The notes under the pieces were generated by a model. That model was not told the origin of the DNA and did not search any database. It worked only from the letters and a program-made list of their open reading frames with translations. Source: Acidobacteriota bacterium (lineage in GTDB: Bacteria; Acidobacteriota; UBA6911; RPQK01; JAJDTT01). Taken from it: 64,000 nucleotides of DNA. The stretch covers positions 2,752,001-2,816,000 of the forward strand of contig OZ253580.1 of the NCBI GenBank assembly GCA_965263035.1, in the 5' to 3' direction. Each line of letters starts with the position of its first letter. Within the stretch, counting starts at the first letter, position 1. Below, piece by piece: positions 2,557 through 63,395 of this stretch. A program made the translations under genes and the position numbers.

Positions 2557-2714
2557 CAGCCCGTGGCAAAAGTCGTCACGGCATTCGACCGTCCCTGCAT
2601 CCCGGCGGACTGCGTTGCGATTCGGGCACATACTCCCGGTATGCACCCGAATCGCGCCTTGTCCGGCGGCCGCAGGAACGGTCTCGGTGCTCGCGGGACT
2701 TTCACCACGGGCTG
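2557..2714 (+). mobile_element. MITE-A copy 1 (158 bp)
   Basis: CAGCCCGTGGCAAAAGTC...GACTTTCACCACGGGCTG termini; flanks TTAC/GTAC; homologous to 9 other copies. Confidence 0.9.
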
Positions 2715-2758
2715 GTACGATGGGCATTCATGTCCGTTCCCGGGGCGCCGGAGGGCCG

Positions 2759-4063
2759 ATGAAGAAAGTCTACCTGGCACTGTCGCTGCTGGTCGTCGCG
2801 GCGGGCGTCGCTTCCCATTTCCGGGACCTGGGCAGACAGTGGTTGGCCACCCTGATGGAGCCGCGGGAAAACGAACCCGTACCCCTGATGCGGGTGACCC
2901 CCAGAAGCTATCGGATCCTGGTCCGAGCCGACGGCGAACTCACGGGACTGCAGATCACACCGGTTCATGCCCCCATGGTGAAGACCGGATCGCTGAAGGT
3001 GGCCTGGCTGGCCGATGAGGGCCAGATCGTCGAGAAAGGGGAAACGGTCGTCGTGTTCGACCAGACCGACGCGGTGTTGACCCTGAAGCAGAGCCACAAC
3101 ACCCTCGACACTCAGGATCACCTCATAGAGAAGCAGAAAATGGAGGCCCGGAGCCGGGCCGAGACGCTGAAGCGGGATCTCGAGAGCACGGAACTGGAAT
3201 TGGACTACACCCAGGACCAGATCCGGAAGGACGAACAGATCTTCTCCCGCTGGGAAATCCAGGAATCGATCGTGAGCGCCGTGTTGGCCCGATACAGAAA
3301 GGGCCATCTGAATCGTAAGGGAGAGGTGCAGCAGGATCTCTCCCAGGCCGGCATGCGCCTCCTCCAGGTCGACCGGAAAATGGCCGAGACGGAGATGAAG
3401 CTGGCCCGGGAGACCCTCTCCTCACTGGAGGCCAAGGCTCCGGTCGGCGGGGTCGTCCTCTACCAACGGAGTTGGACCGTTCTCGAAGTGGGCTCCGAGG
3501 TCTGGCCCGCACAGCCCTTGATGGAAATCGCCGATATGGACCGATTCCGGGGACGGTTGTTCGTCCCGGAGAACCAGATTCGGGGCGTGCAGATCGGCAA
3601 GAAGGTCCAGGTGCGACTCGATGCGTTTCCTGGGGAGAACTTCTCGGGAGAAATCGACAAGGTGGACAAGATCGCCCGCCAACGGCATCCGCGCGACCCC
3701 CGGAAATTCTTCCTCTGCGAAGCTCGTCTCGACGTCTTACCCGATTCCCTGGAAAAGCTGAACCCGGGCATGCGATTCTCCGCCGAGATCGAGTTGGGGG
3801 AAAAAAGCAACGCCGTCGTGATTCCCCGGAGCGCGGTCATCAAGAAGGATTCGGGTTTCGTGGTCTTCGTCAGGGAAGGCGACGAATACCTGGAGAAAAA
3901 AATCGAGATCGTGGACAGCGACTTCGGCTTCCACGTGGTCGAGGGCGTGGCTGCGGGGACCCGGATCTGCCTGCGCCACCCCCTGGAGGATCAGCGCCTC
4001 CACCTTCCCGACTTCAGCTCGCCCACGGCGGGCACGCAGCGGCGCCGTTTCGTCCCCTTCTGA
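2759..4063 (+). CDS. Efflux RND/MacA-family periplasmic adaptor subunit
   Basis: N-terminal anchor MKKVYLALSLLVV, lipoyl-like V.EGQ.V.KG motif, coiled coil, APVGGVV, PGM motifs; ATG 2759 after GGAGGG. Confidence 0.85.
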   Translation: MKKVYLALSLLVVAAGVASHFRDLGRQWLATLMEPRENEPVPLMRVTPRSYRILVRADGELTGLQITPVHAPMVKTGSLKVAWLADEGQIVEKGETVVVFDQTDAVLTLKQSHNTLDTQDHLIEKQKMEARSRAETLKRDLESTELELDYTQDQIRKDEQIFSRWEIQESIVSAVLARYRKGHLNRKGEVQQDLSQAGMRLLQVDRKMAETEMKLARETLSSLEAKAPVGGVVLYQRSWTVLEVGSEVWPAQPLMEIADMDRFRGRLFVPENQIRGVQIGKKVQVRLDAFPGENFSGEIDKVDKIARQRHPRDPRKFFLCEARLDVLPDSLEKLNPGMRFSAEIELGEKSNAVVIPRSAVIKKDSGFVVFVREGDEYLEKKIEIVDSDFGFHVVEGVAAGTRICLRHPLEDQRLHLPDFSSPTAGTQRRRFVPF

Positions 4064-4067
4064 GCGC

Positions 4068-5303
4068 ATGTTCTTCGCCGAGTCGGTCAAGATCGCCCTT
4101 TCCAACTTGGTGCTGCACAAGCTCCGCACGTCGCTGACCATGCTGGGCATGATCTTCGGGGTGGCCGCCGTCCTGTCGATGCTCTCCATCGGGGCCGGAG
4201 CCGGACGTGAAGCTCTGTCTCTGATCCGGAAGATGGGGCTGCGAAACATCCTGATCCGGGCCAAGGCATTCGAGGAAGAGGAACTCAGAATCATCCGTCA
4301 GGACTCTCCCGGCCTGACCCGCCACGATCTGGTGGCCCTGAAGCAGGTGCTTCCGGACGGAACCCGAATCAATGCCAAGAAGGAACACAAGACCTACCAG
4401 ATCGCTTCGGCGCTGGGGAGAGGGGATTCACGGCTCATCGGCGTGGACCCCGGATACCCTCTCGCCGCCAATCTGAAATTGGTGGAAGGCTCTTTCTTTC
4501 TGCCCACGGACGGCCTCCGGCACCATCAGGTCTGCGTCCTGGGAAAGACGGCGCGCCGCAAGCTCTTCGGTCTGAATCCGGCGCTGGGAGAACAGGTGAA
4601 GATCGATGCGCTCTGGTTCACCGTGGTGGGAGTCCTGGCCGATCAACTGCTGGAAAAGGATGAGTTCGAAGGCGTCAAGATCGAGAGCGTGAACAACGAC
4701 ATCTACGTCCCATTGGAGACCCTTCTGGCCAAATACGAACGGAAACCGGTGGAGAACGAGCTGGATGAGATCATCGTCGAGCTCCCCCAGGACCAGGACC
4801 TTTCCGAGCAGGCGGTCGTGATCTCCGGCATGATTGGAAGCACCCACCGGAACATCGACGACTTCTCCATCGTGGTGCCGGAGCGCCTGTTGGAACAGAG
4901 CCGCCGGACCCAGCGGATCTTCAACCTGGTCATGGGCGCCATCGCCTCAATCTCCCTTCTGGTCGGAGGAATCGGGATCATGAACATCATGCTGGCCTCG
5001 GTTCTGGAACGGACCAACGAAATCGGCCTGCGCCGGGCGGTCGGCGCTCGCCGCCGGGACATCAGCCGGCAGTTCCTGCTGGAAGCCCTGACCATCAGCC
5101 TGAGCGGCGCGGCCCTGGGCGTCCTGCTGGGCTCCTCAATCTCCAGCCTGGTCTCCACCTATGCCGGTTGGCCGACGACGATCACCGGCGTATCCGTCCT
5201 GCTGGCGGTCGGGGTCTCGGCAACCGTGGGACTGGTCTTCGGAATCTACCCTGCGCGAAAGGCTTCCCGCGTCTCTCCCATCGAAGCCCTTCGCTACGAG
5301 TAG
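4068..5303 (+). CDS. ABC transporter permease, MacB/FtsX family
   Basis: [15 protein letters not shown] and [28 protein letters not shown] signatures. Confidence 0.92.
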
Positions 5304-5328
5304 AGCTCCCATCCGCAAAGGCTCTGAA

Positions 5329-6147
5329 GTGGCAACGACAAACCGAGATCGAACTCCCAAGGTCCTGATTCGAGCCGTCGACCTTTGGAAGAGCTATCGG
5401 ATGGGGACGGAGACGATCCATGCTCTGAGACAACTCAGCTTCCAGGTCGAAAAAAATGAGTACGTGGCCATCATGGGTCCGTCCGGCTCCGGCAAGTCCA
5501 CTTTGATGAACGTCATCGGCTGTCTGGACACCCCAACCCGTGGACGGTACTTCCTTCACGAGAAACTGGTCAGCGAGATGGACGACGACGAGTTGGCCCA
5601 GGTCCGGAACCAGGAAATCGGCTTCGTCTTCCAGACCTTCAACCTGCTGGCGAGGGCTTCAGCCTACCAGAACATCGAACTGCCGCTCATCTACAGTCGA
5701 TTGCCGAGCGCACGGCGCCGTTCCAGAACCCGTGAGGTCCTGGCTCAGGTCGAACTGGAAGATCGGGCCAACCACCGACCCAACGAATTGTCCGGGGGCC
5801 AGCGTCAGCGGGTAGCGATCGGGCGGGCTCTCGTCAACCGTCCGTCGATCCTGTTGGCCGACGAGCCGACCGGCAACCTGGACTCACGCACGGGCCGGGA
5901 GATCTTGAACCTCTTCGATGCCCTGCACCGAAATGGCAACACCATCGTTCTGGTCACTCATGACCCCGGCATCGCCGACCGCGCCCATCGCGTGATCGAG
6001 TTGCTGGACGGCAAGATCACTCGGGACGAGAAGCTGCGCGGCCGGGACGGAGCGAGATCAGTCCGTGGTGAAAGTCCCGCGAGCACCGAGACCGGGGCTG
6101 CGCCCGCCGGACAAGGCGCTCTGAGGGAGCATACCGGGAGTATGTGA
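5329..6147 (+). CDS. ABC transporter ATP-binding protein (MacB/LolD-like), C-terminus extended by MITE-A
   Basis: Walker [30 protein letters not shown]; start GTG 5329 inferred; last about 28 aa encoded by the repeat. Confidence 0.9.
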
Positions 6148-6217
6148 CCGAGGAGCAACGCAGTCCGCGCACGATGCAGACCCGGTCGAATGCCGTGGCG
6201 ACTTTTACCACGGGCTG
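6059..6217 (-). mobile_element. MITE-A copy 2 (159 bp)
   Basis: Reverse orientation CAGTCCGTGGTGAAAGTC...GACTTTTACCACGGGCTG; flanks AGAT/ATAT. Confidence 0.9.
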
Positions 6218-6235
6218 ATATGAACCGGCTCCGGA

Positions 6236-7246
6236 TCAGAACATCCCGGTTCGCCACAGATCATGGATGTGGACGATACCCACCAGCCTTCCGTCGGCGT
6301 CCGGCACCAGCAGTGAGGTGATTTTCTTTCTCTCCATCAGGTGCAGCGCTTTGGTGGCCAGCTGATCGTCTCCGATGGTGACAGGATTCGGGGTCATGCA
6401 CTCGGCGGCTGTGCAGCCGAGGATCGATGCGCCTCGACTCTGAAGCATACGGCGCAAGTCACCGTCCGAAATGACTCCCACGAGCCTGTCGTCTTCCGCC
6501 ACGATCCCGGCGATGCCCAGTCCCTTGCGGCTGATCTCGTCGATCACCTCCTTCATGGAAGTGGACCATGTGGCCTTGGGGATCTCGTCCCCCCGGTGCA
6601 TGAGATCGGATACCAGAATCAACTGGTTGCCCAGTCCCCCGCCCGGATGGAGCCGCGCGAAGTCCCGGGGCCGCAGTCCCTTTCGCTCCGAGAGGGCGAC
6701 GGCCAGAGCATCCCCCAGGGCCAGGGCAGCGGTAGTGGACGCCGTCGGGGCCAGACCGAGAGCGCATGCCTCCCGATCCACACCCACGTTCAGGACCACG
6801 TCCGAGTACTGGGCGAGGGTGGACTCCGTTTCCCCGACCAATCCGATGATGGGGACCCCAAGCCGCTTGAGAGTGGGCAGCAGACGGACCAGTTCGTGGG
6901 TCTCGCCGCTGTTGGAGACGGCCAGGACCAGATCTCTATCGGCCAACATGCCCAGATCTCCGTGGATGGCGTCGGCGGGATGGACGAACAGGGCGGGAGT
7001 TCCGGTGCTGGAGAGGGTCGCGGCGATCTTCCGGCCGATGATCCCCGATTTCCCCATGCCGGTGAGGACCACGCGCCCGGTGCAGGAAATCAGCAACTCG
7101 ATGGCTTGGTCGAAGCGATGGTCGAGACGGGAAATGAGAGCCGCGACCGCCTCGGCCTCCGTCTCCAGGACTCTCCGGGCCGTCTCCCTGGACCGGCTGG
7201 TCCCGGCATTTCGACTCGGTACGGTCTCAGCTTGCACTACCGTCAT
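6236..7246 (-). CDS. kdsD: Arabinose-5-phosphate isomerase KpsF/GutQ family
   Basis: GMGKSG, STGTPA, HGDLG, HPGG SIS motifs plus a CBS pair; in kds operon. Confidence 0.93.
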
Positions 7247-8093: not shown

Positions 8094-8207
8094 AGTGACT
8101 CCAGATCATAGCGCAAAGCGGGGAAAGAGAGGGGTCGCGCCAAACGTACGCACCGATGGTCAAGAACCAGGTTCGCGATATTGGCGCGCTCGACGGGAGA
8201 ACTCCGA

Positions 8208-9881
<1,674 letters not shown>

Positions 9882-9912
9882 CTAGGTTTCTGTGTCTCTG
9901 ACTTGGAATCAA

Positions 9913-10072
9913 CAGCCCGTGGCAAAAGTCGTGCACGGCATTCGACCGTCCCCGCATCGTGCGCGGACTGCGTTGCAACTCGGTCACATACTCCCGGTAT
10001 GCTCCCTCATCGCGCCTGGTCCGGTGGGCGCAGGAACGGTCTCGGTGCTCGCGGGACTTTCACCACGGACTG
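9913..10072 (+). mobile_element. MITE-A copy 3 (160 bp), inside the kdsB 3' end
   Basis: Same termini; flanks TCAA/TTAA; overlaps the last 29 codons and stop of kdsB. Confidence 0.9.
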
Positions 10073-10799
10073 TTAAAGAGCCATTTTCAAAGAAGGGTCT
10101 GACACGCTCCAGATCTTCTTCGGTATCGACACCAATGCTGTCCTCGTCCACCGTGGCGACCTGAATCGGAATGCGGTTCTCCAGAAACCGGAGCTGTTCC
10201 AGCTTCTCGATCTCCTCCAATGGAGAGGGGCGAAGCCGGGCCAGATTCAGGAGCAACCGTCGCCGGTAGCCATAAATGCCCAGATGCTTGAAGAAAGGGG
10301 CCTGTCCCTCCCGAGCGAAGGGGATCGGGGCCCGGGAGAAATACAGGGCCCGGCCCTCCGAGTCCGTGACCACCTTCACCACATGGGGATCCAAGGCAGC
10401 TTCCGGATCCGGGATGGGAACGCAAGCCGTGGCCACCTGAACCCCCGGATCTCCGTCGAAACAGGCACAGACCCGGTCGATGGTCGTGGGCGGGAGCGTC
10501 GGCTCGTCACACTGGAGATTGATGTAGACGTCCGCCTCGATCCCTTGGGCCACCTCCGCCACCCGCTCGGTGCCGCTACGATGCTTGTCCGAGGTCATGA
10601 CGGCGTTGCCGTCCCAGGAACGAACGGACCGAAAAATTCTCTCGTCGTCGGTGGCGACCAGGATCTGGTTCAGCCGAGTCGACTGCAGAGCGCGCAGATA
10701 GACCCATTGGACCAGGGTCTTTCCGCCGATTTCGAGGAGTGGTTTGCCCGGAAGGCGCTTGGAAGCATATCGGGCCGGAATGACCCCCACGAAGCGCAT
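9984..10799 (-). CDS. kdsB: 3-deoxy-manno-octulosonate cytidylyltransferase, repeat-derived C-terminus
   Basis: IPARYASKRLPGKPL, SGTER, ALYFSRAPIP, EKLEQLR, GVDT. Confidence 0.95.
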   Translation of the reverse strand: MRFVGVIPARYASKRLPGKPLLEIGGKTLVQWVYLRALQSTRLNQILVATDDERIFRSVRSWDGNAVMTSDKHRSGTERVAEVAQGIEADVYINLQCDEPTLPPTTIDRVCACFDGDPGVQVATACVPIPDPEAALDPHVVKVVTDSEGRALYFSRAPIPFAREGQAPFFKHLGIYGYRRRLLLNLARLRPSPLEEIEKLEQLRFLENRIPIQVATVDEDSIGVDTEEDLERVRPFFENGSLTVRGESPASTETVPAPTGPGAMREHTGSM

Positions 10800-10843
10800 A
10801 GGGCAAGGTATCCCAGCCGGCTTGCCCCAGGCAAGGAATCCAG

Positions 10844-11002
10844 CAGCCCGTGGTAAAAGTCGTCACGGCATTCGACCGTCCCCGCATCGTGCGCGGACTG
10901 CGTTGCAACTCGGTCACATACTCCCGGTATGCTCCCTCATCACGCTTGGTCCGGCGGGCGCAGGACCGGTCTCGGCGCTCGCGGGACTTTCACCACGGAC
11001 TG
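10844..11002 (+). mobile_element. MITE-A copy 4 (159 bp)
   Basis: Same termini; flanks CCAG/CTAG; abuts MITE-B. Confidence 0.9.
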
Positions 11003-11006
11003 CTAG

Positions 11007-11165
11007 GAGCCTGCGCGGCAGAGATTGATCTACTGCGAAAGCGGTAGAATCGGTCCATATTTCCTCGATTTCTCGGCGAATAGAACAACTATGCACCTCC
11101 AAATCGAGAAAATCCGGCCTCGATTCCCCACTTTCTCGCTACGATCATTTCTACCGCGCAGACTC
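11007..11165. mobile_element. MITE-B (159 bp), second miniature element family
   Basis: Imperfect TIR GAGCCTGCGCGGCAGA / TCTACCGCGCAGACTC, flanked by CTAG on both sides; AT-richer interior; same ends recur at 37637-37674. Confidence 0.75.
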
Positions 11166-11826
11166 CTAGTTCCCGATTGAAATCGCGCTTTCCGGTCCTT
11201 TCGAAGCGCTCGAAGATCTTGTCCACCCGCTCGGCAAATTCCAGAAGGCTGGCCTGCTGTCGCCGGAAGGGGACTCGATCCAAGGCCTGCTCCAGCTTCA
11301 CCAGATCCCGAGTGAAGGGTTGGTCCACCCGGAGCGGCGGCCGGATGGTGACCAGCATGGCATGGTCTTCGAGATCCATTCCCAAGCGCAGAAACTCGCG
11401 GATAGCCTCCTTGCTCCGCTCCGCCGAGTTGAGGTCCATGGTCTGCAGATCCAGGAGAAAGACGATAAATCCGCCGGGTGCGCGGACCCACTCCGGAAGG
11501 GAATCGGGAACCGCCGGAGTCTCGGCCGGTTCGCCGGCAAGCTCTCCGCGCTCCAATCGGAAGTACTGAATCTTCCGGGGCTTCCCGTCCGCCAGAACCT
11601 GGATTTCGTCCACCCTGAGATCGGCGACGAAACGGCCCTCCCTGTCCGTCGCCACCAGGTCCACCAGCACCAACTCCGACTCGGCGCGAAAACGGGGGGT
11701 CGCGTCCTGTTGTGGCGCGGCCTGCAGCATGGTCAGCGCGAACAGCTGCAGACTCACGACGATCCGTTGCCGCGAGCGGAGATTGTCCCTTTCTCGATAG
11801 ACCTTGTTCATAATGTCTGGAATCAC
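11089..11826 (-). pseudogene. Acidobacterial-type VWA-domain protein, probably truncated by MITE-B
   Basis: PRFRAESELVLVDLVATDREGRFVADL and IVFLLD motifs; the frame runs into MITE-B and stops there; no C-terminal half seen. Confidence 0.6.
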
Positions 11827-13038: not shown

Positions 13039-13249
13039 GAAGAACAGAGGACAAAGAAAAGAGAAAAAGAGGAAAGAGTGAAGAAAGGCGCGTAGTTTAC
13101 GCGTAGCGGGCACCTCTACCGAAAACGATCTGGTTAAGGATTCTGGAGCCGGATTGGTTCGGAGGCTTGTTTCTTCCATGAATCCTCCGGAGCCCAGCCG
13201 GTGAGGGAGCTTTCCTCTTTCCTCTTTCCTCTTTCCTCTTTCCTCTCCC
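13039..13249 (-). repeat. Heptamer-tract-bounded element, family C copy 1
   Basis: Purine tract 13039-13087, about 120 bp core, (TTTCCTC)x5 at 13211-13245; core repeated inverted at 24978-25156. Confidence 0.8.
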
Positions 13250-17272: not shown

Positions 17273-17430
17273 CAGTCCGTGGTGAAAGTCCCGCGAGCAC
17301 CGAGACCGTTCCTGCGCCCGCCGGACCAGGCGCGATGAGGGAGCATACCGGGAGTATGCGACCGAGGCGCAACGCAGTCCGCCGGGATCCAGGGCCGGTC
17401 GAATGCCGTGACGACTCTTGCCGCGGGCTG
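17273..17430 (-). mobile_element. MITE-A copy 5 (158 bp), between coaBC and era
   Basis: Reverse orientation; flanks TCCA/TTCA, the latter containing the coaBC stop. Confidence 0.88.
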
Positions 17431-20453: not shown

Positions 20454-20613
20454 CAGTCCGTGGTGAAAATCGCGCGAGCACCGAGACCGGTCCTGCGCCC
20501 GCCGGACCAGGCGCTTCGGAGGGAGCATACCGGGAGTATGTGAGCCGATAGCAACGCAGTCCGCGCACGATGCAGGGACGGTCGAATGCCGTGACGACTT
20601 TTGCCACGGGCTG
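20454..20613 (-). mobile_element. MITE-A copy 6 (160 bp), between msbA-like and yicC
   Basis: Perfect 4-bp direct repeat TCAT/TCAT, one copy containing the upstream gene's TGA. Confidence 0.92.
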
Positions 20614-24977: not shown

Positions 24978-25156
24978 GAGGAAAGAGAAAAGAGGAAAGC
25001 TCCCGGCTGGGCTCCGGAAGATTCATGGAAGAAACAAGCCTTCGAACCAATCTGGCTCCAGAATCCTTAACCAGATCGTTTTCGGTAGAGGTGCCCGCTA
25101 CGCGTAAACTACGCGCCTTTCTTCACTCTTTGCTCTTTGCTCTTTGCTCTTTGCTC
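24978..25156 (+). repeat. Heptamer-tract-bounded element, family C copy 2
   Basis: Near-identical reverse complement of the 13075-13200 core; (TTTGCTC)x4 at 25129-25156. Confidence 0.8.
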
Positions 25157-34815: not shown

Positions 34816-34975
34816 CAGCCCGTGGCAAAAGTCGTCACGGCATTCGACCGGGTCCGCATCGTGCGCGGACTGCGTTGCTCCTCGGTCACATACTCCCGGT
34901 ATGCTCCCTCAGGGTGCCTTGTCCGGCGGGCGCAGCCCCGGTTTCGGTGCTGCGTGGGACTTTCGCCACGGACTG
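34816..34975 (+). mobile_element. MITE-A copy 7 (160 bp)
   Basis: Same termini; flanks TGAA/TTAA. Confidence 0.88.
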
Positions 34976-36118: not shown

Positions 36119-36408
36119 GGCCGTGCTAGGCGGGGCGTTAGCGGTACCCTGATTCCCTGACAGCCAGGGAGGACTCGCAATCCGCTGCAGCGAGGCTGAA
36201 GACTCCGCTGAGGGTCGCCACCGGGGAACCACTCCGGACCGCCGGAAGGTGTCGAACGTGGGGTCCTCCACAACGGGCGCCCGTGAATCTGGTCAGGTCC
36301 GGAAGGAAGCAGCCATAAGCGGGAATGCACGTGTGTCGGAGGGGTGCTCGACGGGAGCCGGCCGCCGGTCCGGAACTCCGCGGAAGACTCGAAGCGGAGT
36401 GCACGGCC
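36119..36408 (+). ncRNA. ffs: Signal recognition particle RNA, long (Alu-containing) bacterial type
   Basis: Helix-8 motif TCAGGTCCGGAAGGAAGCAGC; terminal helix GGCCGTGC/GCACGGCC; Alu loop-loop complement AGCGG(36140)/CCGCT(36182) as in Bacillus scRNA. Confidence 0.92.
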
Positions 36409-43220: not shown

Positions 43221-43919
43221 ATGCATCGAGAAGCAGGCCTAGCAGCCCGTGGCAAAAGTCGTCACCGCATCCGGCCGTCCCTGCATCCCGGCGGACTGCG
43301 TTGCGACTCGGTCACATACTCCCGGTATGCTCCCTCATCGCGCCTGGTCCGACGGGCGCAGGACCGGTCTCGGTGCTCGCGGGACTTTCACCACGGACTG
43401 CCACGAAGGACGCCAATGGCGGCGGGCGCTCTGCTTCTCTTTTGGGGCGGCCTGTTGGGCCAGGGGGCCGACTCGTCGACTCCTCACGCAGTAGCGCGGG
43501 ACACGTTGCGAGGACTGACCGGCGTTCACGTGGTGGTGGAGGAACTCCGGCCCGAGGCAGTGAAGGACGGTCTGTCCAAGGATGCCATTGAGGAGAGAGT
43601 GGTCCAGCGGCTCTGGGATGCCGGCATCCAGGTCTTGATGAAGGACCAGTGGACCATCGCCGCGGGTGCGCCTTACCTCTATCTGAACGTCAACGCCGTG
43701 AAGAGCAGTGACCTGTACGTCTACGCCGTGGACCTGCAACTGAATCAGACGGTGAAACTGGAGCGTCTCCCATCCGTCGCCGTGGCTGCCACCACCTGGG
43801 CCACCGGGTGTCGTGTCGGTGCGGTTTCGGCCGACTCGGTCGGGGTTCTGGCCCAAGTGGCCGCCCAGTCCGTGGATCGATTCATCGAGGACTACCGGGC
43901 CGCCAACTCGGCAAAGTGA
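43221..43919 (+). CDS. Hypothetical exported protein, with MITE-A in frame near the N-terminus
   Basis: ATG 43221 reads through the element into MAAGALLLFWGG...LRGL.GV.VVVE..PYLYLNV; alternative start 43416. Confidence 0.6.
   Translation: MHREAGLAARGKSRHRIRPSLHPGGLRCDSVTYSRYAPSSRLVRRAQDRSRCSRDFHHGLPRRTPMAAGALLLFWGGLLGQGADSSTPHAVARDTLRGLTGVHVVVEELRPEAVKDGLSKDAIEERVVQRLWDAGIQVLMKDQWTIAAGAPYLYLNVNAVKSSDLYVYAVDLQLNQTVKLERLPSVAVAATTWATGCRVGAVSADSVGVLAQVAAQSVDRFIEDYRAANSAK
43243..43400 (+). mobile_element. MITE-A copy 8 (158 bp)
   Basis: Same termini; flanks CTAG/CCAC. Confidence 0.88.
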
Positions 43920-43948: not shown

Positions 43949-45403
43949 CTACTTTTCGGCGCCGGCCTGTTTCAGCGCCCGGACAGCGGCGACATGGCCC
44001 CGTTGCGCGGCTATCATCATGGCAGTCTGTCCATTCTCGGCCCGCGCGTGCAGCTTGGCGCCGGCCGCCGCCAACGCCTCCACCGTAGCCGGATCATCCT
44101 TGCTGGCGGCGACCATGAGTGCCGTCATCCGACGTTCGGCCCGCTTGTTGACGTCGGCGCCCGCATCCAGAAGTACCTGAACCAGTTCGGCGTACTTCCC
44201 GGCCGCCGCCCACATCAGGGGCGTCTGCCCACTGTTGTCTTTCTCATTCACCTTGGCGCGGCGGGCGATCAGAGCCCTGACCAGGGACGTGCGGCCCGCC
44301 ACGCAGGCCCACATGAGAGGCGTGAGTCCATGCTTGTCCTTGAAATTGACCTCGATGTCCGGTTGGTTGAGCAGGGACAATCCAAGAGGCGTGAAGCCTT
44401 TCTCAATTGCCAGGAGCAAGGCTCGATCCTTCTTCTTGCTCCGGGCGTTGACGTCGGCGCCGGCCGCCAGCAAAGCCTGGGCCGCGACGATGAAGCCCCT
44501 GCGGGCGGACTCCAGAAGGGGGGTATTCTGGTTTCGGTCCGGCACGTTGGGGTCGGCGCCAGCCGCCAACAAGGATTGGACCGAAACCACATCCCCCATT
44601 TCCACCGCCAATAGAAGGGGAGTCCTTCCCCCTTTGTCTTCCTTCCTGAAATCGGCACCTGACTGAATCAGAGTGTGAAGAGTGGCGCCCTCTCCGCTGG
44701 CCGCCGCAATCATCAGCGGAGTCCGTCCTGCGCCGTCCAGAGCGTTGGCGTCGCTGCCGGCCATCAAGAGCACTTGCACCATGGCCGTATCCCCGCGGGA
44801 AGACGCGAGATGAAGAGCGGTCTCCTTCCGGCCGTTGCGGACCTTGACGTCGGCACCTGCTGCCAGCAGAGCTCGCACCGTAGATGCATCGCCGGTCTCG
44901 GCCGCGCCCAGCAAGGGCGTCGTCCGCCGAGGGCCACCGTCGTTCACGTCGGCGCCCGCTGCCAGCAAGGCCTGGACAGTAGATGAGGCCCCACCTTCCG
45001 CGGCCAATTGGAGTGGCCGCTGCTGCTGCCGATCTTCGACCGTCGTGGTCGCCCCCTTGGCTAGAAGCGCCTGGGTGATCGTGGCATCTCCCCGTTCCGC
45101 CGCCACCAACAGCGGGGTCCTGCCACTGCCATCAGGAAGATTCGGATCGGCGCCCCGGAGCAGCAAGGTCCAGATAGCGTTCAGGTCACCTCGGTCCACT
45201 GCTACCAGAAGCAGAGACCGGCCTTGCTCGCCGGGGGAATTGACGTCGGCGACAGCCCCGATTAGTCTCTCGAATGATTCGACGTCGCCGTTCTCGATCG
45301 CCTTGACCAAGGTCTGCCGGTCAGATTCGCGGGGGCTGGCGGCGATGGCGGAGGGGAACGAGAGGAGAGCGATCCAGAAGACCCGCGTGATCATCTTCCA
45401 CAT
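43949..45403 (-). CDS. Secreted ankyrin-repeat protein
   Basis: Signal peptide then about 13 G.TPL..AA..G....V..LL..GADVN repeats. Confidence 0.93.
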   Translation of the reverse strand: MWKMITRVFWIALLSFPSAIAASPRESDRQTLVKAIENGDVESFERLIGAVADVNSPGEQGRSLLLVAVDRGDLNAIWTLLLRGADPNLPDGSGRTPLLVAAERGDATITQALLAKGATTTVEDRQQQRPLQLAAEGGASSTVQALLAAGADVNDGGPRRTTPLLGAAETGDASTVRALLAAGADVKVRNGRKETALHLASSRGDTAMVQVLLMAGSDANALDGAGRTPLMIAAASGEGATLHTLIQSGADFRKEDKGGRTPLLLAVEMGDVVSVQSLLAAGADPNVPDRNQNTPLLESARRGFIVAAQALLAAGADVNARSKKKDRALLLAIEKGFTPLGLSLLNQPDIEVNFKDKHGLTPLMWACVAGRTSLVRALIARRAKVNEKDNSGQTPLMWAAAGKYAELVQVLLDAGADVNKRAERRMTALMVAASKDDPATVEALAAAGAKLHARAENGQTAMMIAAQRGHVAAVRALKQAGAEK

Positions 45404-49414: not shown

Positions 49415-49574
49415 CAGCCCGTGGCAAAAGTCGTCACGGCATTCGACCGGCCCTGCATCGTGCGCGGACTGCGTTGCGACTCGGTCACATACTCCCGGTA
49501 GGCTCCCTCCGTAGCGCCTGGTCCGGCGGATGCAGGAACGGTCTCGGTGCTCGCGGGACTTTCACCACGGACTG
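49415..49574 (+). mobile_element. MITE-A copy 9 (160 bp)
   Basis: Perfect ATAT/ATAT duplication; 12 nt beyond the tRNA 3' end. Confidence 0.92.
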
Positions 49575-49586: not shown

Positions 49587-49672
49587 TGCCCGGAGTGGGA
49601 CTCGAACCCACACGGAGGTGAACCTCCTCAGGATTTTAAGTCCTGTGCGTCTGCCAATTACGCCATCCGGGC
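49587..49672 (-). tRNA. tRNA-Leu (anticodon TAA), CCA not encoded
   Basis: GCCCGGA acceptor, TGGCGTAATTGGCAGACGC D arm, GGACTTAAAATCC anticodon arm, long variable arm, GGTTCGAGTCC T arm. Confidence 0.95.
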
Positions 49673-53916: not shown

Positions 53917-53946
53917 CTTGTCCCTCAACGGGATTGGTGACAGAGC

Positions 53947-56024: not shown

Positions 56025-56050
56025 CGGACTCGACTCGGCAGGGAGAAAAA

Positions 56051-58022: not shown

Positions 58023-58049
58023 CCGCCCTTCGAGCTGGAACGGGATATG

Positions 58050-59549
58050 TCAGGCGTCCAGCGCCAGAACGGGTTTCGACAAACCCAGCTCCTGCTCCAG
58101 CACATGCGCGACCCGCAGTAACAGACCTTCCCCGAAGTGGGGCCCCAGCAGCTGCAGTCCGATCGGCACGCCCTCAGGTGTGTAGGCGCAAGTGGTGGCC
58201 ACTCCGGGAATGCCCGCCAGATTGGCAGTGACCGTGTACACGTCCGACAAGTACATCTCCAAGGGATCAGCGGTCATGTCGCCCTGCCGAAACGGCAGTG
58301 ATGGAGCGGTGGGACCCATCAGAACGTCCGCCCGCTCGAAAGCTCTGCAGTAATCCTCCTTGACCAGGGTCCGAACCTTGCTGGCCTTGAGGTAATACGC
58401 ATCGTAGTAGCCGGCACTCAAGACATAGGTCCCGATCATGATCCGCCGCTTGACCTCGTCTCCGAATCCTTCGCTGCGGCTGTTTCGATAGGTTTCCTCC
58501 AGGGCCCCGATCCTGCTGCTCCGGTGGCCATATCGCATTCCGTCGTAGCGAGCCAGATTCGAACTCGCCTCGGCCAGAGCAATGATGTAGTAGGTGGCTA
58601 TCGCGAACTCCGTATGGGGCAGATCGACCTCCACGACCTGACACCCAACAGCCTCCAGCTTGGCTGCCGCGCGCCGGACCGCAGCTTCGATCCGCCGGTC
58701 CAGACCGGACGAGAACCACTCCGCCGGAAGACCGATCCTCAAGCCTCGGACGTCCCCTTCGAGTGCTGCAACATAATCTTCCACCGGCCGCCTTGCGGAG
58801 GTCGAGTCCATTGGATCGTAGCCGGACACGACCTGCAGAATCATGGCCGCGTCACGTGCAGTGTGGGCCAGCGGTCCAATCTGGTCCAGCGAGGAGGCAA
58901 ACGCCACCAGTCCGTAACGGGAAACCCTCCCGTAGGTCGGTTTCAATCCCACGACTCCACAGAAGGCGGCGGGCAGGCGAATCGAGCCGCCGGTGTCACT
59001 CCCCAGGGCACCCGGAGCCTCCATTGCGGCCACCGCCGCGGCCGATCCGCCGCTGGACCCGCCGGGAACTCTGTTCAGGTCCCAGGGATTGCGGGTGGGG
59101 AAGAATCCCGAGTTCTCGGTGGTGGAACCCATGGCGAACTCGTCCAGATTGGTCTTTCCCAGAATCAGCCCTCCGTCAGCCCGGAGACGGGCGACCGATG
59201 TGGCTTCGTAGGGGGGAACGTAATGCTCCAGAATCCGGGACCCGCAGGTCGTCCGCATTCCCCGGGTAACAATATTATCCTTCACGGCCAAGGGAATTCC
59301 GGTCAACAGGCCGAGCTCCCTTTTCCCCGAGGCCAGAGTCTGATCCAGAGCCCGGGCCTCGTCCAGCAGAGTATCCGCACCAACGCTGATGAAGGCCTGG
59401 ACCTTGGGATCTCGCGACCGAATCCGCCGCAGGTAGGCTTCGGCGATTTCTACCGATGAGATCTGCCGATTCTTGATCGCCCGGTGCAGTTGGGCAATGG
59501 ACAGATCGCAGATTTCACACGCCGATCCGGGTGACTCGTGTTCCATCAC
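58050..59549 (-). CDS. gatA: Asp/Glu-tRNA amidotransferase subunit A
   Basis: GKTNLDEFAMG, PGGSSGGS, SDTGGSIR, SSNLARYDG, YLSDVYT. Confidence 0.96.
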   Translation of the reverse strand: MMEHESPGSACEICDLSIAQLHRAIKNRQISSVEIAEAYLRRIRSRDPKVQAFISVGADTLLDEARALDQTLASGKRELGLLTGIPLAVKDNIVTRGMRTTCGSRILEHYVPPYEATSVARLRADGGLILGKTNLDEFAMGSTTENSGFFPTRNPWDLNRVPGGSSGGSAAAVAAMEAPGALGSDTGGSIRLPAAFCGVVGLKPTYGRVSRYGLVAFASSLDQIGPLAHTARDAAMILQVVSGYDPMDSTSARRPVEDYVAALEGDVRGLRIGLPAEWFSSGLDRRIEAAVRRAAAKLEAVGCQVVEVDLPHTEFAIATYYIIALAEASSNLARYDGMRYGHRSSRIGALEETYRNSRSEGFGDEVKRRIMIGTYVLSAGYYDAYYLKASKVRTLVKEDYCRAFERADVLMGPTAPSLPFRQGDMTADPLEMYLSDVYTVTANLAGIPGVATTCAYTPEGVPIGLQLLGPHFGEGLLLRVAHVLEQELGLSKPVLALDA

Positions 59550-59842
59550 TCGATGACCCTGGGCACTCGGAAGTACCCCTTTTGAGCCTTGGGCGATCCC
59601 TCCAGGACGGCTTCCGGTGCCAGCGAGGGCCGGGTTCGGTCGGGACGTACGGCACCCTCGCCCGGGATCTCCGCCAGGCCATGGTAGGTCGGCGCCACCC
59701 CTTTCGTGTCCACCTGCTGGAGCTGCTCAAAATAATCCAGAATTCGCTGGAACTGGGCGACGAACCGCTGCAGTTCATCGGGAGAGAATTCCAGATGGGC
59801 CAACTCGGCGATTCTTCGGACCTCTTTGGGAGTGATGCTCAT
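59546..59842 (-). CDS. gatC: Asp/Glu-tRNA amidotransferase subunit C
   Basis: I...EV..IA.LA.L, VDT.GV.PT, YFRVPRVIE; upstream of gatA. Confidence 0.93.
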   Translation of the reverse strand: MSITPKEVRRIAELAHLEFSPDELQRFVAQFQRILDYFEQLQQVDTKGVAPTYHGLAEIPGEGAVRPDRTRPSLAPEAVLEGSPKAQKGYFRVPRVIE

Positions 59843-60795
59843 TGGACTTTCCTCTCGAGAACCGAATCCGACTTCATTCCATATTTGCGGGCCATCCGGA
59901 CATCGCACCCGACTCGCCGTCTCAAAGCCGCAAGGTTGGAGAATCGCCTCTCCGCACGCAGCCTGTACCAGAAATCGAGCGTCATGAACTCTCCGTACAG
60001 GTCGCAGTCCGCATCCAGCAAGTAGGTCTCCACCAACGGCTTGTCCGCGGGTTCGCCCAATGTGGGGCGGTAGCCTATATTGGTGGCGCCGACAAAAACA
60101 GCGCCGTTGACCGTCGCTCGGGTGACGTACACCCCAGTTGCCGGTATGAGCTCGCTGGCCGGCTGAAGATTCGCCGTGGGGTATCCCAGGTCCGCGCCTC
60201 TGCCCGATCCCCTCACCACCGTACCCAGAATCTGGTAGGGCCGGTCCAGGAGGCGCCGGCAGAGCGCCACCCTCCCTTGGCCCAACAGCTTGCGGACGAC
60301 CGTACTGCTGACACGTTGTCCCCGAAAACGGACCGAATCGATGGAATAGACATCAAACCCGAACTTCCGCCCCAGGGATTCCAGGGTCATGAAATCGCCT
60401 GCTCTCCCGTACCCGAAGCGAAAGTTGCTACCCACGTGGATCTCTTTCATGCCATGGGATCCCAGGACATCCCGGACGAAACGTTCGGGACTGAATCGGG
60501 AGACCTGACGGCTGAAGGGGAAACGAACCAGGATGTCCAGATCCATCTCCCTGAGGAGACGATGCTTCTGCACCGGCAACTGCAAAAGGGAAGGCGCGTC
60601 CGCGGGCGAAATGATTTTCTGAGGATGAGGGGAGAAGGTGAGGAGAATCCCGGTCCCGTTCATTTCTCGAGCCCGCTCCACCACCCGTTTGACGATCGCC
60701 TGGTGTCCCAGATGCAGGCCGTCAAAAACGCCGATCGTGGCCACCGGATACGGTAACCCGGGAGGGAGCTTCTTCAGGTCGTCAATGATCTGCAT
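59839..60795 (-). CDS. ribF: Bifunctional riboflavin kinase/FAD synthetase
   Basis: G.FDG.HLGH, SST..R, G.PTAN, NIG.RPT, ET. Confidence 0.95.
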   Translation of the reverse strand: MQIIDDLKKLPPGLPYPVATIGVFDGLHLGHQAIVKRVVERAREMNGTGILLTFSPHPQKIISPADAPSLLQLPVQKHRLLREMDLDILVRFPFSRQVSRFSPERFVRDVLGSHGMKEIHVGSNFRFGYGRAGDFMTLESLGRKFGFDVYSIDSVRFRGQRVSSTVVRKLLGQGRVALCRRLLDRPYQILGTVVRGSGRGADLGYPTANLQPASELIPATGVYVTRATVNGAVFVGATNIGYRPTLGEPADKPLVETYLLDADCDLYGEFMTLDFWYRLRAERRFSNLAALRRRVGCDVRMARKYGMKSDSVLERKVQ

Positions 60796-60834
60796 GTTCC
60801 TTCACGATGCGGGAGGTCGCGCCGGCGACTCGAG

Positions 60835-61590
60835 TCATACCTCCAGGACAAGACCGTCATGGGCCAGACTGACTGACTCCGGCAGGTAGGCATTTCCCTC
60901 GTCGTGGTCCACTTCGTGGCAGATGTGGACCAGATAGGTTCGCTCGGGCCCAATGCGAGCCGCCGCCTCGACCGCTTCCGACAGGCTGAAGTGCGTTGGA
61001 TGACTCTGATAACGAAGGCCGTCCAGCACCAGGCACTCCACCCCTCGGAGACGCTCGAAGCTGACCTCCGGAATATAGCTCACATCGGTCAGGTAGGCGA
61101 GACGCCCGATTCGGAAACCCAGCACCGGCATCCGGCCATGCATGAGGTCGATGGGCTCGATTTCCAGATCACCCACTCGGAACCTGCCGGCAACCGGAAT
61201 CAGCTGGACGCTGGGAACGCCGGGATAACCCTTGCCGTCGAACAGGTGACGAAAGGTCACCGCGATCTCTTTGAGTGTGGCTTCACTTCCATAGGCGGGT
61301 ACCGTCCGCTCCGACCACATGTTGAACGGGTAAACGTCGTCGAGTCCGAGAATGTGGTCCACGTGAGAATGGGTATAGAGGAGAGCGTCGAGGTGACGAA
61401 CTCCGCACCGAAGCATCTGAACACGGAAGTCGACGGAAGTATCGATGACCAGTGTCACCGTGCCCTGGATCAGAAGCGAACTGCGCAGCCGATGGTTTTT
61501 CGGATCGTCCGACAAGCAAACCTTGCAATCACATCCAATGACGGGAATGCCGCGGGAGGTCCCGGTTCCAAGAAACGTCACCCGCATCAC
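60835..61590 (-). CDS. MBL-fold hydrolase (PhnP-like)
   Basis: LGTGTS.GIP.IGC.C..C, THSHVDHILGLDD, YLTD, HDG. Confidence 0.9.
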   Translation of the reverse strand: MMRVTFLGTGTSRGIPVIGCDCKVCLSDDPKNHRLRSSLLIQGTVTLVIDTSVDFRVQMLRCGVRHLDALLYTHSHVDHILGLDDVYPFNMWSERTVPAYGSEATLKEIAVTFRHLFDGKGYPGVPSVQLIPVAGRFRVGDLEIEPIDLMHGRMPVLGFRIGRLAYLTDVSYIPEVSFERLRGVECLVLDGLRYQSHPTHFSLSEAVEAAARIGPERTYLVHICHEVDHDEGNAYLPESVSLAHDGLVLEV

Positions 61591-62018
61591 AGCTTGATCG
61601 AGTTGGACTGCCTCATGACACCCATCTGCATCTCGTAGATCAGGCTGTCCAACAGCCTCGCCTCCTCCTCTGAAAGATTCCCTAGAGTCTTGTCCCTCAG
61701 CACCGACAGGATTTCAATCATCTGTCTGGCGCCCGAAAGGTTCTCCTGTTTCTTGCCGGTTACCGGGTCAGGAATGGCGCCCAGATGAACCATGCCAGTG
61801 GTGGCCAGAGACAGGACGAATCCGGAAAAATCCATCCCTGCTTCACCGGAAGCTTCGCCTGCTCCGGAAGCCCGCGGCACCCTCGCGTCCGTCCCGGCCG
61901 TGCGTTTCTCCACATCCTTCGATGCCTTCTCCGGCCGGGCCGCTCGCAACTCTCCATCCTCGGCGAAGATCCTTCGATCGCGAACCTTGAATCCTCCCTG
62001 GCCTGACTCTCCCGTCAT
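61587..62018 (-). CDS. DUF1844 domain protein
   Basis: FKV.DRR.F, F..FVLSL...G..HLG, A...I.IL..L..KT.GNL..EE. Confidence 0.85.
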   Translation of the reverse strand: MTGESGQGGFKVRDRRIFAEDGELRAARPEKASKDVEKRTAGTDARVPRASGAGEASGEAGMDFSGFVLSLATTGMVHLGAIPDPVTGKKQENLSGARQMIEILSVLRDKTLGNLSEEEARLLDSLIYEMQMGVMRQSNSIKL

Positions 62019-62033
62019 GAATTCGCCCCCTCT
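61936..62033. repeat. 98-bp direct repeat, copy 1 (5' end of DUF1844 gene)
   Basis: Matches 63130-63227 with about 9 substitutions (counted by eye). Confidence 0.9.
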
Positions 62034-62082
62034 TCTTCCGTCACTTCGGCATCGCCCATGTTTCCCGTGCGGCGAACAGCGG

Positions 62083-63117
62083 TCAAGGCTGGAGTATGAC
62101 CTTTGTCAACCCAGGCTCGCGCGCGTACAGCCGGTCGAACATTTCCTGTCCGCGCTCCAGCGGTACCGAGGCGCTCAGTACCGGTCGCACCCGGATGGCT
62201 CCGCGCCGCATCAAGTCCAGGCAGGCAGGGTAGTCGTTGGAAGACGCGCACGAGCCGAGCACGTCGATTTCGCGGGTCACGACGCTCTGCAATCCGAAGC
62301 TGACGGTCGGCGCGATATTGCCGATGAGGACGACCCTCCCTCCCTTGCGTACGCTGTCCATCGACATCGCTACGGTGACGTCGACCCCCACGGCCTCCAT
62401 GACCAGATCCGCCCCCAGCCCGCCGGTTATCTCCCTGACGACCGCCGGTACGTCCGTCCCGTCGCCGGACTGAATGGTCTCGTCCGCTCCGAGTTCCTTC
62501 GCCAGTCGCAGGCGGTCGGCCGCCAGGTCGACCACGAAAATCCGGCCGCAGCCCGCGCTGCGCAGCGCCTGGGTCGTCAGCAGACCGATCATCCCCGCTC
62601 CCACAACCAGTGCCTTGTCCCCGAGCGACGGCTTGGCGCGCGCGACGGCATGCACGGCGACCGAGACAGGTTCCACCATGGCAGCCTCGTCGAAGCTGAC
62701 ACCGTCAGGCACCCGGAACACGATGTGGTTCGGCACGGCCACGTATTCGGCAAATGCCCCGTGGCGCCGATAGTCATCGCAGGAGACGCCGAGCACGCGC
62801 CGGTCCTCGCAGAGGTTGGGACGGCCTTCTCGGCAGAATACGCAGTTCCGGCAGCAGATCATCGAGTCAAAGGTGACCCGTTCGCCGGGGTCGAAGCCGC
62901 GTACTGCGCTTCCCACCTTTGCGACTACGCCCGACGCCTCGTGGCCCATGATCACCGGCGGGATCCGGCGCCCGGAGCTTCCGTCGTAGCCGTGCACGTC
63001 GCTTCCGCAGATCCCGCACGAGCGTACCCGGATCAGCACCTCGTTGGGAGCGGCATCGGGGCTCGGGACTTCCATCAGGTCCAGCTTCTTGTATTCGTTC
63101 AGGACGAGCGCTTTCAT
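62083..63117 (-). CDS. Zn-dependent alcohol dehydrogenase (galactitol-1-phosphate/iditol dehydrogenase-like)
   Basis: CGICGSD, GHE, C..C..C, GAGMIG. Confidence 0.88.
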   Translation of the reverse strand: MKALVLNEYKKLDLMEVPSPDAAPNEVLIRVRSCGICGSDVHGYDGSSGRRIPPVIMGHEASGVVAKVGSAVRGFDPGERVTFDSMICCRNCVFCREGRPNLCEDRRVLGVSCDDYRRHGAFAEYVAVPNHIVFRVPDGVSFDEAAMVEPVSVAVHAVARAKPSLGDKALVVGAGMIGLLTTQALRSAGCGRIFVVDLAADRLRLAKELGADETIQSGDGTDVPAVVREITGGLGADLVMEAVGVDVTVAMSMDSVRKGGRVVLIGNIAPTVSFGLQSVVTREIDVLGSCASSNDYPACLDLMRRGAIRVRPVLSASVPLERGQEMFDRLYAREPGLTKVILQP

Positions 63118-63212
63118 TGTTTCTTCGTGCGGGCCGCTCGCAACTCCCCATCCTCGGAGAAGATCCTCCGATCATGAACCTTGAGTCCTCCCTGGCCTGA
63201 TTCTCCCGTCAC
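63114..63212 (-). pseudogene. 32-codon duplicated 5' fragment of the DUF1844 gene
   Basis: GTG..TGESGQGGLKVHDRRIFSEDGELRAARTKKQ-TGA; its TGA overlaps the dehydrogenase ATG. Confidence 0.7.
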
Positions 63213-63227
63213 GAATTCGCTCCCTCT
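63130..63227. repeat. 98-bp direct repeat, copy 2
   Basis: Matches 61936-62033. Confidence 0.9.
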
Positions 63228-63235
63228 ACGGCTGA

Positions 63236-63395
63236 CAGCCCGTGGCAAAAGTCGTCACGGCATTCGACCGTCCCTGGATCGTGCGCGGACTGCGTTGCTA
63301 TCGGCTCACATACTCCCAGTATGCTCCCTCCGTTGCGCCTGGTCCGGCGGGCGCAGGAACGGTCTCGGTGCTCGCGGGACTTTCACCACGGACTG
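63236..63395 (+). mobile_element. MITE-A copy 10 (160 bp), inside the mazG 3' end
   Basis: Same termini; flanks CTGA/TTGA. Confidence 0.9.

Follow-up and report, generated by a model that had tools for sequence, protein, structure and literature searches.

What could keep the interior of a short transposable element folding on one strand? The interiors of MITEs are usually seen as decayed filler between transposase-binding ends. In a 64,000-nucleotide stretch of an Acidobacteriota genome (the window), a sequence-only reading described ten copies of an element, MITE-A, and proposed that its interior is under selection for a fold displayed by a single strand. All ten copies were located at the starts it had claimed (lengths, 158 to 160 bp), with flanking 4-mers that are perfect duplications in two copies, carry one mismatch in seven, and carry two in one, again as claimed. 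Genome-wide, we found 153 full-length copies, typically 159 bp long (158 to 161 bp in 147 of them), and they are much denser in the window (10 in 64 kb) than in the genome on average (198 BLAST loci in 6.2 Mb). With 18-bp terminal inverted repeats, a short length, and no transposase gene or other gene inside, MITE-A has the makeup of a MITE. The 4-bp flanking duplications are perfect in 74 of the 153 copies and have one mismatch in 51; when duplication lengths of 1 to 9 were compared, 4 alone was commonly duplicated.

Its identity as a MITE is upheld by its ends, its 4-bp target, and empty sites in congeners, where a single 4-bp target stands at the orthologous site for 7 of the 10 window copies. 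Copy 1 (positions 2557 to 2714, folding strand minus), in which canonical pairs replace the tandem G-A steps, occupies a site that is empty in congeners G001, G002, and G005 and that holds a 97-nt remnant lacking the central core in G007. Copy 2 (6059 to 6217, plus strand), our reference for the sub-parts of the element, has an empty site in G006 and G007. The site is empty in all five congeners for copy 3 (9913 to 10072, minus) and in four of five for copy 5 (17273 to 17430, plus). Between these two lies copy 4 (10844 to 11002, minus), which abuts a second MITE family at 11007 to 11165. Copy 6 (20454 to 20613, plus), an inner-segment variant with a perfect duplication, corresponds to an empty site in G001 and G005 and to a 5-nt scar flanked by the duplicated targets in G002, G006, and G007. 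Copy 7 (34816 to 34975, minus) is an old insertion that G002 and G007 have too. For copy 8 (43243 to 43400, minus), G006 and G007 are empty and G002 retains a 56-nt remnant. Copy 9 (49415 to 49574, minus), which has a perfect duplication and adjoins a tRNA gene (49587 to 49672), is matched by an empty site in G006 and by a 29-nt remnant of fused ends in G002 and G007. Copy 10 (63236 to 63395, minus) is another inner-segment variant, and its orthologous site is not cleanly resolved.

A search for a cognate insertion sequence outside the window, as the earlier reading had advised, uncovered an IS1182-like transposase with matching ends. MITE-A targets YTAR, which is duplicated as 4 bp, and its ends read CAG...CTG. 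In the family consensus, the right terminus (18 bp; 6200 to 6217 in copy 2, plus strand) matches the left end of the IS1182-like element exactly, and the left terminal repeat (18 bp; 6059 to 6076, plus strand) differs from the IS end in three places, all of which become G-U pairs on the folding strand. The same genome holds deleted IS1182-like elements with MITE-A ends (three of 754 bp and one of 1,072 bp) and no intact transposase of this family. Intact elements of ~1.47 kb, with MITE-A-type ends and open frames of 447 to 467 aa, occur in six of eight congeners, and 12 of the 16 examined have a perfect 4-bp duplication. The deleted copies encode DUF772 and DDE_Tnp_1_6, the latter just below its cutoff on the fragment. 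This domain pair, in a transposase of ~450 aa, agrees with the IS1182 family, as do the terminal repeats and the 4-bp target. The best NCBIfam family is NF033551 (E = 1.9e-52), with 178.8 bits against a curated cutoff of 270, and the closest plasmid homologs (48 to 51% identity) are labeled "transposase" or "IS5 family".

Given the shared IS1182-like ends and target and the empty sites, MITE-A is a MITE with an identified mobilizer. An IS1182-like DDE transposase, acting in trans, would recognize its 16- to 18-bp ends, and, judging from the ends, target, and empty sites, it very probably mobilizes MITE-A, with insertion at YTAR and a 4-bp duplication. Viewed purely as an IS1182-type MITE, MITE-A is ordinary. 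Its interior shows no similarity to that of the IS1182-like element, and no ERIC core was found inside the 16 congener elements or the two deleted elements tested. Elements in G016 that resembled IS ends are really longer, double-core MITEs.

The strand beginning CAGTCC, said to be the better folding one, is so in all ten window copies. Across the genome it folds better in 152 of 153 copies with RNA parameters (mean, -89.4 versus -76.9 kcal/mol) and in 150 of 153 with DNA parameters (-42.0 versus -37.7). The folding z score of copy 2 is -9.4 on this strand and -5.2 on the opposite one, so the opposite strand of this copy also folds far beyond chance. The consensus has eight wobble pairs, every one of them G-U on the folding strand and none A-C. 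The compensatory changes claimed in copies 1, 2, 5, and 7 are present in the alignment, and 28 copies carry one or the other side of the outer-stem swap, 23 of them with both arms paired. When all 153 copies were given to RNAalifold with default penalties, the rod was recovered on neither strand (-23.7 versus -23.5); with RIBOSUM scoring of a random 30 of the 153, it was recovered (-120 versus -101), as it was from averaged pair probabilities (59 versus 48 pairs).

Within this genome, a share of the compensation described by the earlier reading (G-U to Watson-Crick) resembles recurrent arm-to-arm correction in DNA, not selection on RNA. Outer G-U sites become Watson-Crick from either arm, with 4 to 25 carriers per site against a baseline of 1.0 to 3.6 and with 7 to 19 changes on the tree; such repeated change from both sides fits hairpin formation in DNA. 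Among MITE-A flanks, no such correction was found past the target duplication. Of the flanks with two mismatches, 3 of 22 are perfect inverted complements against 3.5% expected, a difference too weak for use. Mosaics that join left and right inner arms of different subfamilies occur often (14 and 5 of 145 parsed copies), and about a third of the copies (53 of 153) have spread despite an inner segment that differs and pairs poorly.

Far stronger support for selection on a one-strand fold comes from other lineages than from the ten copies. By its sequence, the center of MITE-A is an ERIC core, and MITE-A is an IS1182-type MITE that carries it. The core consists of two short conserved modules, given here for copy 2 on the plus strand. 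Module 1, a bulge plus a 3-bp helix, is formed by AAGGCG (6113 to 6118) and CAACGC (6156 to 6161). Module 2 (6127 to 6148) is the apical hairpin GAGCWTA-loop-TAWGYGAC, which has tandem G-A, G-U, and a short stem and in which loop length is free. ERIC (also IRU or RU-1) of Enterobacteriaceae and Vibrionaceae has the same apical hairpin, AAGGCG/CAACGC module, and folding strand; the central hairpin and flanking module that mark an ERIC core are both found in MITE-A. A model built without ERIC rows still weakly matches ERIC-type loci (E = 0.005 to 0.7).

Transposons with many different ends, from about eight phyla, enclose the core, and its modules stay nearly invariant while stems and ends are replaced. 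At least 119 genome loci match the core pattern. Among the matches listed, AGGCR, which lies outside the pattern, stands upstream of 103 of 116 scorable loci, compared with 8 of 113 control windows, and the exact core 3' half, also outside that pattern, is present in 76 of 116 distinct metagenome matches. The 5' half of module 1, AAGGCG, is the most invariant part across phyla. In 91 dereplicated cores, the folding strand is better in every one, G-U outnumbers A-C (126 versus 36), and G-A outnumbers C-U (204 versus 11). Covarying stems are indicated by anchored pairs, which at most of the variable positions exceed shuffles that ignore relatedness of the cores (83 of 91 cores); covariation was judged from these counts and shuffles and from tree change counts, neither being a formal covariation test. 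The spacer between modules is 8 to 9 or 17 to 22 nt, with none of 76 at 10 to 16, and the two lengths differ by a mean of 10.9 nt per strand, one helical turn. By a crude rule, the long-spacer class is mostly ERIC relatives (30 of 74 are non-ERIC-like). Six of 22 loci have one core on each strand. Within the phylum its distribution is patchy (the exact pattern occurs in 7 of 301 genomes), and a covariance model detected the core in 32 of 76 genomes of the order; it was not found inside the autonomous IS elements tested.

Does MITE-A, then, match an already described MITE, as the earlier reading had allowed it might? Its core does, being that of ERIC; the whole element does not. ERIC is ~127 bp long with TA termini (as described in sections of PMC2229807) and MITE-A is 159 bp, with IS1182-like ends, a 4-bp YTAR duplication, a spacer one helical turn shorter, and a host outside the Gammaproteobacteria. 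According to those sections, ERIC had yielded no motif beyond the terminal repeats, and PMC10969869 regards ERIC as a repeat of Enterobacteriaceae and Vibrionaceae. The papers searched yielded no description of a core common to several phyla; the supplements of PMC11602168, with 1.4 million MITEs, may well list the family. No Rfam family falls on MITE-A at gathering score or at E ≤ 5 (five loci), and none in Rfam 15 reaches its gathering threshold on core elements. V_AS5 (RF02818) and Ysr49 (RF02766) weakly match ERIC-type and Endozoicomonas core loci (27 to 36 bits, far under gathering scores of 95 to 96 bits) and do not match MITE-A; such matches suggest that both families probably overlap such elements. 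BLASTN of MITE-A against plasmids gave a single chance match.

Other short repeats were compared by description. As excerpted from PMC3184786, bcr1 of the Bacillus cereus group is likewise ~155 bp, flanked by direct repeats, and marked by compensatory changes that keep the fold; it is also transcribed and structurally decayed in many copies, and it differs in forming a cruciform rather than a rod and in its 5-bp repeats. The same source describes Correia/NEMIS, RUP, and Nezha MITEs as short elements with terminal repeats and stable hairpins, and the IS matching Nezha is in another species, as for MITE-A; a shared cross-phylum core is not part of these descriptions. Hairpin ribozyme, kink-turn, bulge-helix-bulge, attC, sigma-70 or single-strand promoter, and CRP site were each dropped, as the required residues or geometry are absent. 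The apical stem resembles the RNase III consensus, which would presumably place the cut at the loop, a misfit. In the part of PMC1540722 on E. coli-type substrates, proximal and distal boxes are accompanied by an 11-bp helix from cut site to loop. RNase III might still cut in the outer rod.

Our best explanation, to which we give an even chance, is that the core serves as a docking site on a single strand and is selected because it helps the element itself to spread. The interior of MITE-A is an ERIC-type rod not derived from the IS, whose modules, as the covariation and the G-U and G-A bias show, are displayed only when one particular strand folds. The two spacer lengths, one turn apart, suggest that both modules are held on the same helix face, an arrangement to be expected if a widely conserved host protein docks there or if a tertiary contact is fixed. 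Selection would act in lineages still copying and not on settled copies, in which case the core most likely raises the rate of donor-copy mobilization. Such an effect in cis on the donor makes transiently single-stranded DNA, at a replication fork or as a displaced strand, somewhat more probable as the folded form than nascent RNA. A fork model might show a leading/lagging-strand bias, and MITE-A orientation shows none (73 of 153 copies), which counts against it. The richness in G-U and tandem G-A, the larger energy gap with RNA parameters, and the 10.9-nt step fit RNA at least as well. Also weighing against the docking-site explanation are the spread of copies with poorly paired inner segments, the transposase score under its curated cutoff, the lack of an intact transposase in the same genome, the ERIC-dominated long-spacer class, and the dispensability of the core. 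The core is dispensable for spread because the 754-bp elements (three copies, 98.7% identical, which have moved), two 97-bp copies, and the neighboring MITE family without a core-model match (167 near-full copies, as abundant as MITE-A) all lack it.

Less likely, and the strongest rival, is a host-relevant RNA, in which a cotranscribed core sets mRNA processing or stability and insertions survive by that effect or as a harmless, compact rod. Such effects on processing or stability are reported for ERIC, involving RNase E, and for Correia elements, involving RNase III. Orientation-dependent effects of ERIC on upstream transcripts are reviewed in parts of PMC2229807 and PMC10969869. One core copy lies inside an RNase P gene with the folding strand transcribed, and in two phage contigs the sense strand carries the core immediately ahead of the ribosome-binding site of an open reading frame that looks structural. 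The folding strand of MITE-A is more often antisense (57 versus 34, p = 0.02; 5 of 5 intragenic copies), a mild excess that suggests some effect on mRNA, if a harmful one. Nevertheless, a host function for the RNA that the sequence-only reading had entertained is not supported at these loci. There is no preference for the sense strand, either here or in 27 codirectional loci from metagenomes and viruses (12 sense, 15 antisense), and at shared sites the interior has been deleted in congeners. Settled copies decay evenly over core and non-core, with no purifying selection on the core: private mutations number 1.08 per core column versus 1.0 to 1.28 elsewhere (p = 0.67), and nonconsensus letters of all kinds come to 2.2 per column in one module and 5.0 in the other, versus 2.5 elsewhere. 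Harmlessness alone, moreover, does not require invariant letters. Expression data were assembled contigs from four runs, which give neither strand nor ends nor level; the summed depth of the element, set against that of its flanks, is similar in RNA runs and in a run of unrecorded type, which is no sign of an abundant free RNA and equally no evidence against one. At copy 3, a contig of RNA run X4 skips 164 bases; this contig is from a diverged strain, and we read the skip as an empty allele, not as RNA excision.

It is improbable that the core has no function at all and that all these MITEs go back to a single old hairpin whose ends were swapped, with hairpin-templated correction mimicking covariation. 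Arm-to-arm correction is visible in MITE-A, homology between differently ended elements of the order extends to interior sequence outside the core, and core-less families amplify well. However, correction would remove G-U pairs, G-A pairs, and bulges, yet exactly these are retained, the modules are almost invariant across about eight phyla, and drift explains neither the two spacer lengths nor the presence of one core per strand.

Very improbable is an RNA intermediate, whereby a host enzyme recognizing the core reverse-transcribes a read-through transcript and the transposase cuts the element from cDNA and inserts it. Donor-side selection on an RNA-like fold, mosaic copies, and arm-to-arm changes would all be accounted for, but the folding strand is not favored as sense, and none of 39 proteins flanking non-ERIC cores (of 40 listed; Pfam, E ≤ 1e-8; 11 without any match) is a reverse transcriptase, nuclease, or transposase. 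The linked enzyme gene that marks REP/RAYT-type repeats is likewise not seen among these flanking proteins. We know of no precedent for an RNA intermediate of DDE elements. Most improbable of all are double-stranded DNA sites where an architectural protein would bend the short element and so bring its ends into synapsis, as with the IHF site that Correia elements contain (according to sections of PMC2229807): the one-turn step fits B-DNA too and many short-spacer-class elements are 159 to 162 bp whatever their ends, but covarying stems, free loop length, and G-U over A-C bias are meaningless in a duplex.

Extending the docking-site explanation beyond MITE-A, we tentatively propose, at somewhat less than even chances, that throughout bacteria the ERIC core acts in cis as a "mobility enhancer": a single-strand site that, once folded, is read on one helical face by a conserved host factor, captured and shuffled between the ends of nonautonomous elements of several unrelated transposase families, and doubled in some so that either strand displays it. 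If this is true, the core is a kind of functional part not previously recognized in bacterial transposons, and ERIC acquires a mechanism. The module outlives its ends across about eight phyla, keeping strand and helical phase and sometimes occurring once per strand, yet settled copies freely lose it. This combination points to an unrecognized host-factor step in MITE spread, which is directly testable because congeners carry the cognate intact transposase. At one core locus (L173), a 22-mer over the 3' half of the hairpin is printed together with "ERIC2" in 122 papers. An ERIC-PCR primer sits on the core, which may bear on its working outside enterobacteria.

MITE-A, whose ten copies in the window were recovered at the starts given by the sequence-only reading (each 158 to 160 bp, with the pattern of matches and mismatches between flanking 4-mers that it described), is a MITE with a mobilizer of a known kind. 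In the single-contig genome holding the window (G000; 6.2 Mb, 62% GC), BLAST finds 198 loci, of which 153 are full length (a pair of ends spaced 150 to 175 bp), with a mean identity of 90%. The 4-bp target duplication, of consensus YTAR, is perfect in 74 of the 153 and has one mismatch in 51. A search for insertion sequences with similar ends, proposed by the earlier reading, found IS1182-like elements that are deleted in G000 and ~1.47 kb long in congeners. MITE-A ends bound three 754-bp elements and one 1072-bp element in G000, which carry DUF772/DDE transposase pieces, as well as ~1.47-kb elements with open frames of 447 to 467 amino acids in 6 of 8 congeners; 12 of 16 such congener elements examined have perfect 4-bp duplications. 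The best NCBIfam match of the transposase is the IS1182 family, at a score under the family cut-off. An IS1182-like enzyme would mobilize MITE-A in trans.

Empty sites, which that reading had proposed to look for, are present: 7 of the 10 window copies are matched by an empty site with a single target in one or more of five congeners, and other congener sites hold remnants of 5, 29, 56, or 97 nt flanked by duplicated targets. Head-to-tail tandem copies with one target site between them occur at G000:C1:4517022-4517345 and in congener G007 (C2, about 483865-484186). All eight congeners carry the family, while BLAST matches were obtained in only 2 of 32 other relatives; near matches come from records named Vicinamibacterales. 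Because whole-element homologues with the same end type and 69 to 82% identity (L083 [Ca. Palauibacter], L045, L060 [Vicinamibacterales], and L306) occur in another phylum and in other orders, sequence comparison suggests horizontal transfer.

Judged from sequence, the MITE-A interior is the ERIC core, that is, an apical hairpin and a flanking AAGGCG/CAACGC module. A relative in another family shares its center with MITE-A and has different ends, and a 22-mer over the 3′ half of the core hairpin is the published ERIC2 primer. A pattern combining the apical hairpin and the downstream hexamer, with degenerate positions set partly after the known ERIC sequence, matched at least 119 loci in GTDB genomes, 80 of them with titles. 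Among the matches listed, the titled loci come from Enterobacterales and other Pseudomonadota, Acidobacteriota, Bacteroidota, Bacillota, sulfate reducers, Campylobacterota, Myxococcota, and Gemmatimonadota (three phyla looked up). AGGCR, left outside the pattern, lies upstream at 103 of 116 scorable loci among the matches listed versus 8 of 113 control windows. In the converse scan, of metagenomes, 76 of the 116 distinct matches carry the 3′ hexamer without change. Core-bearing elements have widely differing ends. Within the phylum the core is patchy, with the exact pattern in 7 of 301 genomes (reversed-pattern control, 0); a covariance model located it in 32 of 76 genomes of the order. With the model, the AAGGCG/CAACGC module is seen to be nearly invariant and the apical hairpin variable. 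The core was absent from the autonomous insertion sequences checked (16 congener elements) and from two deleted G000 elements, and no partner gene was found among 39 proteins flanking non-ERIC cores. In two phage contigs the core lies on the sense strand (L186, 1487-1538; L197, 1474-1551), between ORFs that look structural by eye and directly 5′ of a ribosome-binding site.

The strand-specific fold that had been proposed extends to the whole family: the CAGTCC strand has the better fold in 152 of the 153 copies with RNA parameters and in 150 with DNA parameters, and all eight consensus wobbles on it are G-U. After dereplication at 75% identity, 91 cores remain, and the equivalent strand folds better in every one, with in-register mismatches of G-U (126) versus A-C (36) and G-A (204) versus C-U (11). 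Variable stem positions in 83 cores pair more often than in shuffles, with relatives counted as independent. Default RNAalifold on all 153 copies failed on each strand, and a further run recovered the rod; the inner segment is poorly paired in a third of copies, and the inner arms are mosaic. The compensatory changes named in the window copies are present in the alignment, and part of them is probably explained by arm-to-arm reversion. Outer G-U pairs become Watson-Crick from either arm, several times above the baseline rate and repeatedly on the tree, including by changes that depart from the insertion sequence end, which suggests that the hairpin forms in DNA. True two-sided pair swaps also exist (3 to 5 changes on the tree).

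The spacer between the core modules measures 8 to 9 or 17 to 22 nt, with lengths of 10 to 16 nt in 0 of 76 and 0 of 103. Between the two classes the mean spacer shifts by 10.9 nt per strand, which is one helical turn. Many members of the long class are ERIC relatives and so may not represent independent events. Two diverged cores, one per strand, were observed at 6 of 22 examined loci, from five genomes and three families, in elements of about 270 to 285 bp or parts of such. Double-core MITEs of this kind (L354, L389 [G016], L391 [G032], L392 [G337], L406 [G327], L407 [G326], and L393 [G022]) have at least three different end types. A tiny hairpin joins the two cores; in several elements its loop reads as a GAA triloop on one strand and as UUCG-type on the opposite one.

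In G000, variants confined to one or two copies are spread evenly over core, ends, and paired and unpaired columns (P = 0.67), the core modules are kept no better than the remainder, and the interior has been deleted at shared sites in congeners. Where the flanking genes are co-directional, the folding strand is antisense in 57 cases and sense in 34 (P = 0.02; our own gene calls), and at 27 co-directional loci outside G000 it is sense in 12 and antisense in 15; there is no bias directly behind stop codons (38 versus 36), nor does orientation favor either replication strand (73 of 153). Given the even decay, the interior deletions, and the lack of sense-strand preference, no host-level constraint is seen on settled copies; spreading lineages retain the core.

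Core-less elements with IS1182-like ends have moved. MITE-A versions of 97 bp, which lost the core via deletion between short direct repeats in both arms, lie at G000:C1:858052-858148 and 2719181-2719277 and, in G007, at the position corresponding to copy 1 (window 2557-2714); one G000 copy may have moved without the core, since both carry the same rare variant. A second MITE family (~160 bp, CTAG-like flanks), which at window 11007-11165 abuts MITE-A copy 4 (10844-11002), lacks a core-model match and has 167 near-full copies in G000. Its rod is strand asymmetric too (−86.9 versus −63.2 kcal/mol), and it has inserted into MITE-A copies at G000 3161708, 3245123, and 3755278. Because core-less elements moved and this core-less neighbor is so abundant, the core is at most an enhancer.

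We propose that a host factor would read both core modules on a single helical face and that the core would raise the activity of the donor copy. The folded core may act as RNA, a reading favored by its G-U/G-A richness, by an RNase E effect reported for ERIC (PMC2229807), and by core placements in an apparent RNase P gene and phage contigs. We slightly favor single-stranded DNA, since any benefit has to be exerted in cis and the strand that folds is not the one that is transcribed.

Folded, covarying MITE interiors have been described before, in bcr1, Correia, and ERIC (PMC3184786, PMC2229807, PMC10969869, PMC11602168); MITE-A works alike and is likewise a MITE, but by length and ends it is not an ERIC. 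In the open literature searched, no account of a core common to several phyla was found. The present analysis adds the mobilizer, a test for neutral decay, the spacing of one helical turn, and the elements with one core on each strand.

One MITE-A copy (G000:C1:2701034-2701192) lies within an apparent RNase P RNA gene, called from motifs, with its folding strand on the gene's strand. In the window, a tRNA (49587-49672) lies 12 bp from MITE-A copy 9 (49415-49574), a large SRP RNA occupies 36121-36406, and an ankyrin-repeat gene spans 43949-45403. Related strains of 9300-11500 occur in runs labeled sponge metagenome. A 136-bp dispersed repeat (13066-13201 and 25003-25138) has 23 near-full copies in G000, with purine-rich simple repeats at its flanks. 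A 107-bp direct repeat (89%; 61927-62033 and 63121-63227), found nowhere else in G000, brackets a zinc-dependent dehydrogenase gene.
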